From: a virus
Lineage: Duplodnaviria > Heunggongvirae > Uroviricota > Caudoviricetes
Length of the DNA: 33,718 nt
Direction: 5' to 3' (one strand)
Virus record (IMG/VR): IMGVR_UViG_2541047860_000009
Location: 1-33,718 of that record
Position numbers: made by a program. Of the stretch, positions 1 to 3,000 are shown in pieces (position 1 is the stretch's first letter; every line of letters begins with the position of its first letter).

Positions 1-3000
1 TTGCCTCCCCCCCGTTGATGGGTAAAATAGCCGCAATTTTTCGTTTTCAACAAGCGCGGCGCGATGCCGCTTACTCAAGAAGAAAGAATTATGACGTTGT
101 CTCCTTATTTGCAAGAGGTGGCGAAGCGCCGCACTTTTGCCATTATTTCTCACCCCAATAATTAAGCCCAAATTAAAGCTCTTTTACTCTTTCAAAATCC
201 TTTCAGTTAATTGAGGTTGAGCTATATAACTCATTTAAATACATTTGGTTATGTGGCTTCTTTAATTGAAAATTCTTTCATGTAACTTTAAATCGATCAG
301 TTTGCTTTCATCAAAAATCTGTACATATGCTTGTACATAATGTACAAAACAGCAGAGGTGTTTTGCGATTTGTACAAGGTGAGTAATGGCGCTGTCTGAT
401 GCGTGGTTGCGTTCAGTCGTTGGAAAGGAACGTGATAAGGTTTTGGTTAAATCCGATCGTGATGGTCTGTCTGTCAGAGTATCACCGAAAGGTCGCGTAG
501 TGTTCCAATATCGTTATCAATGGGCAGGGAAAGGTGAGCGTCTTGATATCGGAACTTACCCGGCAACTGGATTAAAAGAGGCCAGAGAAGAAGTTATCCG
601 TCTCCGTGGTGAACTTGAGTCAAACCGTAATCCACGATTGGTCAAGCAGGCTGAAAAACGAAAAGCTACTGAAGCCATGACGGTAGAGTCTGTGATCCGT
701 GCCTGGTATGAAGCATATTGTGTAAAAAATAAAAAAGGTTCTGAACAGATACTCCGCTCGTTTGAGCTGCACCTGTTCTCTAAAATCGGGAATATCCCTC
801 ACGATGCAGCTACATTGCATGATTGGTTAGAAGTCCTGGAGCCTCTTAGCACTAAGACTCCAGCAATAGCAGACCGATTGCTAATTAACGCAAAGCAGGC
901 CCATGTCTGGGCGTATAAGAGAAAGCTCATTGAAACTCGCCCGCTGTCGGATATCTCGGGTAAAGATATGGATATCCGTAAAGGTCAGAAGAAACGGTTT
1001 CTGACACATGATGAAATTAAAATCCTTTATGCTGCGATCGATGGTTCTCGAATGGTTCCTAAATACCGGGCCTTCATTAAGCTATTGCTGCATTTTGGCT
1101 GCCGTAGTTCAGAGCTAATTACTGCCAGGGTGGACGATTTTGATTTCATTAATAAGGTATGGACTGTACCACCAGAACGACATAAGACTGGAGAGATAAC
1201 AGGCGAACCGCTAAAGAGGCCCATTATTGAACCGGTGGAGGAGCTTATAAAGAACGCTATCTCTATGAACAATGGTTCCGATATGCTTTTTACTAAGGAA
1301 GGAAGCAGGGAACCCGTTGGTCGAACATCATTGCAGTCGCTGCCTTACAATTTAATGCAGTACGCATGGAGGCGTTTGGGGTATCAATTCCCTCATTGGT
1401 CTCTTCATGATTTGAGGCGAACAGCACGAACAAACTTTTCTGATCTTACTGCTCCTCATATTGCAGAAATAATGCTCGGCCATAAACTGCCAGGGGTTTG
1501 GCAGGTTTATGACAAGAGCGATTATCTAGAAGAACAGCGTAAAGCATATCAGGCATGGTGGGAGAGAGTTGAATCGATCGTTACTTGTACTGGCCCAGAA
1601 TCTACCTGACAGCTTGCGTAGCCCTGACAGTCTGTTTTGAGCGAACAGTGGACATTTTCAATGGCATTCTTGAGTAGGTTACGCTTAGACCAGAAGTAAG
1701 AGGTGATAGAATTATCAACAATACATAAAACATAGGGGATCCTTATTGATTTATTGATCTTGACCAACTTATGTGATGCAGTATGTCTTTAACTTGTATT
1801 ACTATTATCTTTATCTTGTTGTTTCTAATAAACTTATCTTATTTCAGAAAGGAGTTTTTATGCATTTAGTCACGAAATCTTATTTCGATGCCTTTTGCAA
1901 AGCATTCGCTGCGCCCTATGAGGAGACCAAAAATTTTGAGGCGTTTGTGAACTATTGTGCTTTTTCAAAATACTCAGGCGACAAAGTTGAGGTCAGTGAT
2001 CTTGTGTATGAAGGCCCGGACCCTGGTATTGATGGCGCATTTTTATTTTTAGACGACAGAGCCATTTTTTCAACTGAAGAACTTCAGGAGATTTTCCAAA
2101 ACTCACGTCGCGAGTTTCAAGTTTCATTAATATTCACGCAAGCTAAGTCATCGGAGAAGTGGAGCAAACAGGAAATAGACTCTTACATTGCGTCAATAAG
2201 AGATTATCTTTCACCAGCGCCACAACAACCCCACAGTGAATATCTAGCGGACTTTAAAAAAATGTTCAACTTGATATTTGCTAATATCGGCAGAGTCAAA
2301 AATGGCCTTCCAGACTTATACGCATATTTTTTTAGTGCTGCACAAAATACAGAGGCCAGAGAAATAAAAGCTGCATTTGCATCGGGTGAAAAAAGCTTAA
2401 AGTCACTCGGGTTTTCACATGAAACATCCTTCATTATGGCTCACAAAGACATGATTCATGAGCTTTGGCTTGCTGCGGAAGGTCCAATAGAAGCTAAACT
2501 TCCTACAATAGGCTATGCTCCATTACGTTTCCATAAATGCCCCCGCAGGGGCATTTGCAGTAATGAAATCAGGCGGTGAAAGTACCAATAAAGGTTTCTA
2601 CTTTGCTGTCTTTGAATTTCTCAACAAGCAGATCACGAAATTCGTTAGCCATTTCTTCCTGGACTGCTTCCAACTGAATAATGCGCAGAACCAGTACAGG
2701 ACGATCGCCAGTGATAATGCTGAGGCGTAATTTAAACGGACGTTCTTTCAGACCTTCAAACGGAACGCATTTAAATTCAAATGCCACTGGCATAATGTCT
2801 TTGGTCTTCGCTTCGACAGATTCCATCAGGGAGCGTTTGCCGCTGAAGTCATTATCTTCAAAATCAGCGGTCTGGTTTGCTTCAATCGTGATTTTACGGA
2901 TTGCCGCAGCCGCTTTTGTTGCCTGAATGGCGTCACCATTAGCATCAAAGCCCACAAGGTAGTCGGCCCAGTCTTCAATCCATTCTGCCAGTGATTTCTG

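Follow-up and report, generated by a model that had tools for sequence, protein, structure and literature searches.

A 239-codon open reading frame beside the integrase of a lambdoid prophage is most probably a deletion remnant of an AIPR/AbiU-type anti-phage gene

The 239-amino-acid open reading frame (ORF) found at positions 1860 to 2579 on the plus strand of the window (here, the whole 33,718-nucleotide stretch of the Caudoviricetes record IMGVR_UViG_2541047860_000009) is best explained as the remnant, left behind by a deletion, of a prophage-borne AIPR/AbiU-type anti-phage gene, a reading to which we give a probability of about 0.88. A preliminary description of the same DNA had presented this ORF as a candidate single-gene defense with an unusual Mrr layout. 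That interpretation has to be abandoned, because the ORF comprises only the front 39% (residues 1 to 221) of a 566-amino-acid AIPR/AbiU protein, the remainder of which has been deleted, and its odd layout follows from this loss.

The ORF begins with ATG, preceded by a GGAG Shine-Dalgarno sequence at a distance of 5 nt. Its placement between the tyrosine integrase gene on one side and the minus-strand early-left genes on the other is as originally described, and so is its convergence with yfdQ (DUF2303), with which it overlaps by 11 nt (Table 1). The integrase gene stands at the left end of the prophage, directly downstream of the host gene yjjG. The region between the integrase gene and the ORF yielded no call of a consensus sigma-70 site on the plus strand. 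The ORF had also been characterized as far more AT-rich than its neighbors; it is genuinely AT-richer, but modestly so, at 41.1% GC (GC3, 37%) versus 45.3% for both adjoining genes and 50.9% for the whole window. The intact AIPR gene has a GC content of 36.9% (GC3, 28%). Scans of the 239-amino-acid ORF with Pfam and NCBIfam returned nothing relevant; one match, to HisKA_2, was below threshold and was put down to chance.

Table 1. Features in and around the truncated AIPR gene (window coordinates; L001 is the comparison locus from NZ_CP027118)
Feature	Positions	Strand	Basis
Tyrosine integrase	386..1609	+	Pfam Phage_integrase, Arm-DNA-bind_3, and Phage_int_M; 100% identical to L001
AT-rich region upstream of the AIPR gene	1610..1859	+	Unchanged versus the intact allele (100% identity to L001)
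Codons 1 to 221 of the AIPR/AbiU-type defense gene: complete N-terminal PD-(D/E)xK domain and first strands of the next module	1860..2522	+	
Deletion junction: 3-bp microhomology, ATT, common to both parental sequences	2522..2524		blastn and junction alignment
18 foreign codons and TGA stop, derived from what was yfdR-yfdQ intergenic DNA and from the 3' end of yfdQ in antisense	2523..2579	+	Translation; alignment to L001 9986-10042
Hairpin, 9-bp stem and 4-nt loop	2535..2556		Sequence; RNA fold, -19.7 kcal/mol, z = -2.05
yfdQ (DUF2303), conserved early-left prophage gene	2569..3393	-	Pfam DUF2303, E = 6e-93; RefSeq "YfdQ family protein"

An undeleted version of this region was found in NZ_CP027118, where the AIPR gene is succeeded by genes on the other strand, first those for a DUF551 protein and a "phage protein" and then yfdR, yfdQ, and yfdP. 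By blastn, positions 1 to 2524 of the window are identical to L001 4402-6925 (100% over all 2,524 bases), and positions 2522 to 4007 correspond to L001 9985-11470 (98.8% identity). Relative to the L001 prophage, the junction alignment revealed the window to lack 3,062 bp. This deletion removed AIPR residues 222 to 566, including the whole Pfam AIPR domain, together with the DUF551 gene, the "phage protein" gene, yfdR, and 84 nt of the yfdR-yfdQ spacer. Neither the deleted DNA nor the missing part of the protein was found elsewhere in the window by blastn and tblastn, so that a displaced 3' part of the AIPR gene was not found within it. The flanks carry no substitutions relative to the intact allele, and the deletion must therefore be very recent.

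Among 5,426 complete Escherichia coli genomes searched by megablast, positions 1600 to 2524 of the window were found at 99 to 100% identity in 58, in which the end of the integrase gene is followed by a gene for an "AIPR family protein"; none of these matches continues beyond position 2524. The junction itself was absent from all 5,426 genomes when searched with 1.1-kb and 181-nt probes. The only recorded occurrence of the exact 239-amino-acid protein is on KE701070.1 of draft assembly GCA_000459435.1, a contig to which the window is 100% identical across the 8,579 bases compared.

Beyond P221, the reading frame continues through 18 unrelated codons, passing through the spacer hairpin and ending at a TGA 11 nt inside yfdQ. 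The suggestion that the C terminus was created by fusion to a terminator proved to be half right. Fusion did take place, in that the last 18 codons are yfdR-yfdQ intergenic sequence joined on by the deletion, but the fused element is not a terminator: the stem is present, but a T run follows on neither strand, and a terminator scan made no call. A rho-independent terminator at 2535 to 2556 was thus rejected for want of a U tract. The element had been reported as a perfect 22-bp palindrome encoding the final eight or so codons; it is actually a 9-bp stem (AAATGCCCC/GGGGCATTT, positions 2535 to 2543 and 2548 to 2556) closed by a 4-nt CGCA loop that is not self-complementary, and it encodes codons 226 to 233 of 239. 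In intact prophages, the hairpin is located just downstream of the yfdQ stop codon, between yfdQ and yfdR, and the yfdQ-end sequence that includes it has matches in 2,718 of the 5,426 E. coli genomes.

The intact allele encodes WP_061362269.1, a protein of 566 amino acids named "AIPR family protein" in RefSeq (e.g., NZ_CP027118 3906591-3908291). It occupies the same slot, next to the same integrase and at the same chromosomal site, and the 100% identity of its residues 1 to 221 and of all upstream DNA supports the descent of the 239-amino-acid ORF from the AIPR gene. By comparison, the window copy is without residues 222 to 566 and has an 18-residue unrelated tail, and DUF551, "phage protein," and yfdR are gone nearby. 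A link of the ORF to a defense family, as initially proposed, was confirmed by its match to the PADLOC AbiU profile (PDLC02357; E = 7e-25), which extends over profile positions 3 to 195 of 537 only, versus positions 3 to 535 for the intact protein (E = 4e-111). Judged by a full-length profile match, the 239-amino-acid ORF does not qualify as AbiU, while the intact allele matches end to end. Pfam AIPR (PF10592) spans residues 258 to 520 of the intact allele and has no match in the ORF even at an E value of ≤1. Compared with AbiU/AbiUi of Lactococcus lactis, the window ORF has an N-terminal domain that matches the profile and is without PF10592. In PHROGs, the intact protein belongs to phrog_1841, which is described as an abortive-infection mechanism; the ORF matches the same group (E = 2e-6), again only partially, as with the AbiU profile.

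A database search for homologues showed the 566-amino-acid form to be conserved over the Proteobacteria at 44 to 90% identity and with a nearly constant length. In a word-indexed search, the 221-residue query missed even the identical full-length protein, which the full-length query found. A full-length AIPR-like protein of 565 amino acids is also encoded by Salmonella phage Fels-2 (STM2723.1; L009 3001-4698), where it is annotated just as hypothetical. It is distant, with 24% identity over the N-terminal domain, and its gene is flanked by the gpA/DinI region on one side and portal gene Q on the other, which is the classic cargo hotspot of P2-type phages.

Both motifs that had originally drawn attention to the ORF, G52-PDPGIDGAFLFLDD-66 and V88-SLIFTQAK-96, are present. 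Residues E27, D54, P55, G56, D58, Q94, and K96 are invariant in 38 to 40 homologues, down to 36% identity. In an AlphaFold2 model of the full-length protein built from an alignment of 38 full-length homologues (mean pLDDT, 83; about 90 in the N-terminal region), strands 211-215, 218-221, and 230-237 bridge to the next module. The N-terminal domain has the restriction endonuclease-like alpha/beta core of the PD-(D/E)xK superfamily, and the homologue alignment and predicted strands place conserved acidic and lysine catalytic-type residues along its core strands. Modeled alone, residues 1 to 221 (pLDDT, 90; pTM, 0.86) form a compact domain up to about residue 207, followed by disorder at 210 to 221, which indicates that the truncation fell just past an intact domain. 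In this model of the fragment, D58 is placed just before strand 59-64, and Q94-x-K96 closes strand 88-96. The roughly 130 residues that had been thought to contain no recognizable domain are, up to about residue 207, part of this same compact and confidently modeled nuclease domain.

The further assignment of this core as Mrr-like holds only in part. At the level of fold and motif, a PD-(D/E)xK domain of the D...QxK type is evident: the GIDG-like loop and the D...(Q/E)xK variant are represented by D54-P-G-I-D58-G and Q94-A-K96, both invariant, which we take to resemble the Mrr motif, a likeness of residues rather than of profiles. Membership in Mrr_cat was not borne out, as neither PF04471 nor any other nuclease family in Pfam was matched at an E value of ≤10 by any of 17 sequences (the ORF and 16 homologues). 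Comparison of the N-terminal domain alignment with EcoKMrr by hhalign gave a probability of 0.2%, a weak negative given the shallow profile (Neff, 1.6), and the alignment profile had no match at an E value of ≤10 among all PDB sequences. Sequence identity of the domain to the FokI cleavage domain and to Mrr-type PD-(D/E)xK nucleases (AF1548, MspJI, AspBHI, and the nuclease domains of Avs4 and LlaBIII) is only 9 to 13%. Mrr usually consists of an N-terminal winged-helix domain and a C-terminal catalytic domain; unlike this layout, the nuclease domain of the AIPR parent is N-terminal and precedes a ParB-like domain. The model lends independent structural support to the view that AIPR/AbiU begins with a FokI/Mrr-like PD-(D/E)xK domain and continues with a ParB-like one.

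A natural class of proteins consisting of the N-terminal domain by itself was not found, either among long contigs, which yielded two cases, or among 30 short cluster representatives. Both long-contig cases (218 and 257 amino acids) are split genes, each directly followed by an ORF with an AIPR domain, and one of them adjoins an insertion sequence. When 1.84 billion cluster representatives were searched exhaustively with phmmer, the N-terminal domain occurred only at the N terminus of proteins, from residue 1; the commonest protein length was about 560 to 600 amino acids, with many shorter entries besides. Alignment of 30 short representatives to the full-length family profile showed their ends to be scattered over profile positions 177 to 315, with one internally deleted fragment reaching 406; in 17 of the 30, the match stops no more than 8 residues short of the protein's own end, and the other 13 carry nonhomologous tails of 10 to 70 residues. 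Scattered ends and nonhomologous tails point to contig-end fragments and frameshifts rather than to a discrete family. An excess of representatives of 200 to 290 amino acids was considered as a possible stand-alone family and is most readily put down to ascertainment, since the N-terminal domain served as query and is more divergent, so that N-only fragments cluster separately.

The slot beside the integrase gene was confirmed to hold variable cargo, as had been supposed, by a neighborhood comparison over the 5,426 E. coli genomes. A related integrase (at least 90% identity) was found at the same yjjG site in 699 of them, and homology ends at the integrase stop codon. AIPR occupies the slot in only 58 of these 699 genomes; other occupants are a CHAT-domain protein and unrelated hypothetical proteins. 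This documents that the integrase-proximal slot of the yjjG-site prophage family swaps its cargo (AIPR, CHAT-domain protein, and others). Individual examples of such cargo are a 710-amino-acid CHAT-domain protein (L006 5738-7870), a 183-amino-acid hypothetical protein (L007 5798-6349), and a hypothetical protein that also has 239 amino acids, WP_000040218.1 (L008 5897-6616), and is unrelated to the window ORF. Strain K99B has a 239-amino-acid hypothetical protein in this slot; identity with the window gene was considered and rejected, the two being unrelated.

These findings suggest the following course of events. The ancestor would have been a lambdoid prophage downstream of yjjG whose slot after the integrase gene held a 566-amino-acid protein of three parts: the N-terminal PD-(D/E)xK domain (about residues 1 to 207), a ParB/sulfiredoxin-like middle domain, and a helical C-terminal domain, the latter two together constituting Pfam AIPR. 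Illegitimate recombination at the 3-bp microhomology, in a single event of 3,062 bp, would have removed residues 222 to 566 and three early-left genes, joining codon 221 to the yfdR-yfdQ spacer and thereby adding 18 unrelated residues. In the intact protein, the nuclease probably acts as the effector and the ParB-like/C-terminal part in sensing or regulation, by analogy with systems of the GmrSD/BrxU/SspE type; GmrSD/BrxU, SspE, and DndB are the ParB-like (DUF262/DndB-type) defense enzymes with which the ParB-like domain of the AIPR parent was compared. The remnant retains the start signals and the effector domain and has lost the sensing/regulatory part, so it would be expected to give no protection against phages and to be a recent pseudogene.

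AbiUi acts as a single-gene system, and its AlphaFold model is similar to FokI (PMC13064643). In L. lactis, AbiUi alone gives modest resistance, with plating efficiency reduced 10- to 100-fold and phage transcription delayed, according to the account of Dai et al. (2001) contained in PMC13064643. AbiU-1 has been listed among single-gene PD-(D/E)xK defense systems (bioRxiv 10.1101/2024.10.26.620412). Because the N-terminal nuclease of AbiU has already been published (PMC13064643; bioRxiv 10.1101/2024.10.26.620412), the nuclease nature of the domain is not new; what is established here is the deletion with its endpoints, which domains remain, and how rare the allele is. In a small, non-dedicated sample of the literature, the intact E. 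coli allele was not met among experimentally tested systems, and the phenotype data were those of the lactococcal AbiUi only.

That the ORF is, after all, a complete and functional defense gene, whose product would be a self-sufficient Mrr-like PD-(D/E)xK nuclease with a new type of C-terminal region, can hardly be right. The PD-(D/E)xK fold with its invariant D...QxK core, the location in a variable cargo slot beside the integrase gene, and the intact start signals would suit such a gene. However, residues 1 to 221 of the ORF are the same as those of a 566-amino-acid protein, from which the ORF diverges at the deletion junction, and its seemingly novel C-terminal part consists of the remaining nuclease domain followed by 18 residues translated from intergenic DNA. 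The lack of a Mrr_cat match, the lack of a stand-alone class among the homologues, and the restriction of the allele to one assembly weigh in the same direction. This restriction could, in turn, be taken as a sign that the deletion is an artefact of draft assembly and that the AIPR-DUF551-yfdR segment is in fact intact in the strain, as the junction is present on one contig of one assembly only (reported as common to 2 samples) and in none of the 5,426 complete genomes. We regard such an artefact as barely plausible, because the contig is 1.28 Mb long, the breakpoints share 3 bp only, with no flanking repeat able to collapse an assembly, and the deleted 3 kb is nowhere else in the window. Rather, a 3-bp microhomology is typical of genuine illegitimate recombination.

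A truncated product that is made and is nuclease active without its regulatory or sensor part could be a leaky toxin, a dominant-negative form acting on other AIPR copies, or a weak, nonspecific restriction factor. The nuclease domain alone models as an independent compact fold (pLDDT, 90; pTM, 0.86), the catalytic-type residues are kept, and the upstream region is unchanged. We nevertheless consider this outcome unlikely, as the allele is a singleton with no sign of selection for the short form, the absence of flank substitutions versus the intact allele marks it as very recent, and an unregulated nuclease would be counterselected. Moreover, FokI-type cleavage domains have little activity alone, without their DNA-binding part and dimerization.

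Returning to the deletion remnant as the preferred reading, the truncated product is likely to be inert and the gene a recent pseudogene, a loss of function suggested by domain logic and by the finding of no version that naturally stands alone. That the product keeps some nuclease activity, or an unregulated one, is a lesser but appreciable prospect, and continued protection is unlikely. A point against the preferred reading is that the deletion spared the promoter region, the Shine-Dalgarno sequence, and the entire nuclease domain, conserved residues included, so that a stable and possibly active fragment could arise. An accidental, stable, sensor-less AIPR nuclease domain that is natively expressed and tolerated by the cell is improbable. 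If it existed, it would be a natural separation-of-function allele of AIPR, indicating either that the AbiU/AIPR nuclease is inactive without the ParB-like/C-terminal part or else that it provides weak constitutive restriction.

The ORF should be annotated as an AIPR/AbiU pseudogene that has been truncated; neither "hypothetical protein" nor a new defense of the nuclease type would be a fitting label. It provides a clean case in which a deletion gave a prophage cargo slot an ORF that could plausibly pass for a "novel small nuclease," and the lesson is that comparison with sister prophages should come ahead of claims of novelty. Beyond annotation, its significance is small: it is a truncated copy, seen in one assembly, of an already known defense gene, and prophage hotspots of this type are known as well.

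Several other features of the window and its relatives were observed. A gene for an "ECs1072 family phage-associated protein" (4290 to 4724, plus strand; NCBIfam E = 2e-46; 38% GC) is located between yfdP and the cI-like repressor gene, in an orientation opposite to both neighbors. It has no match in Pfam or PADLOC and may be a second moron. Between yfdP and this gene, positions 3822 to 4290 are GC rich (up to 55%) and contain several overlapping long ORFs on both strands; no gene was called there in the source assembly, and homology to L001 stops at position 4007. Rfam identified the isrK Hfq-binding RNA at 7192 to 7268 on the plus strand (64 bits), directly followed by the C4 antisense RNA at 7293 to 7380 (82 bits), both inside an ORF (6832 to 7668) whose product matches Pfam Phage_ASH. 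This pair looks like a C4-controlled antirepressor module of the P1/P7 type embedded in a lambdoid prophage.

Among the relatives, NZ_CP019281.1 ("plasmid p13P484A-1"; 33,754 bp) is annotated as a circular plasmid, yet it contains the same type of prophage, with int, AIPR, yfdR, yfdQ, yfdP, and tail genes. Many of its genes are frameshifted, including a split AIPR gene, and the chromosome of the same strain matches as well. Beside a DinI-like gene, it encodes an adjacent reverse transcriptase and TIR-domain protein, possibly a retron- or DRT-like defense pair.
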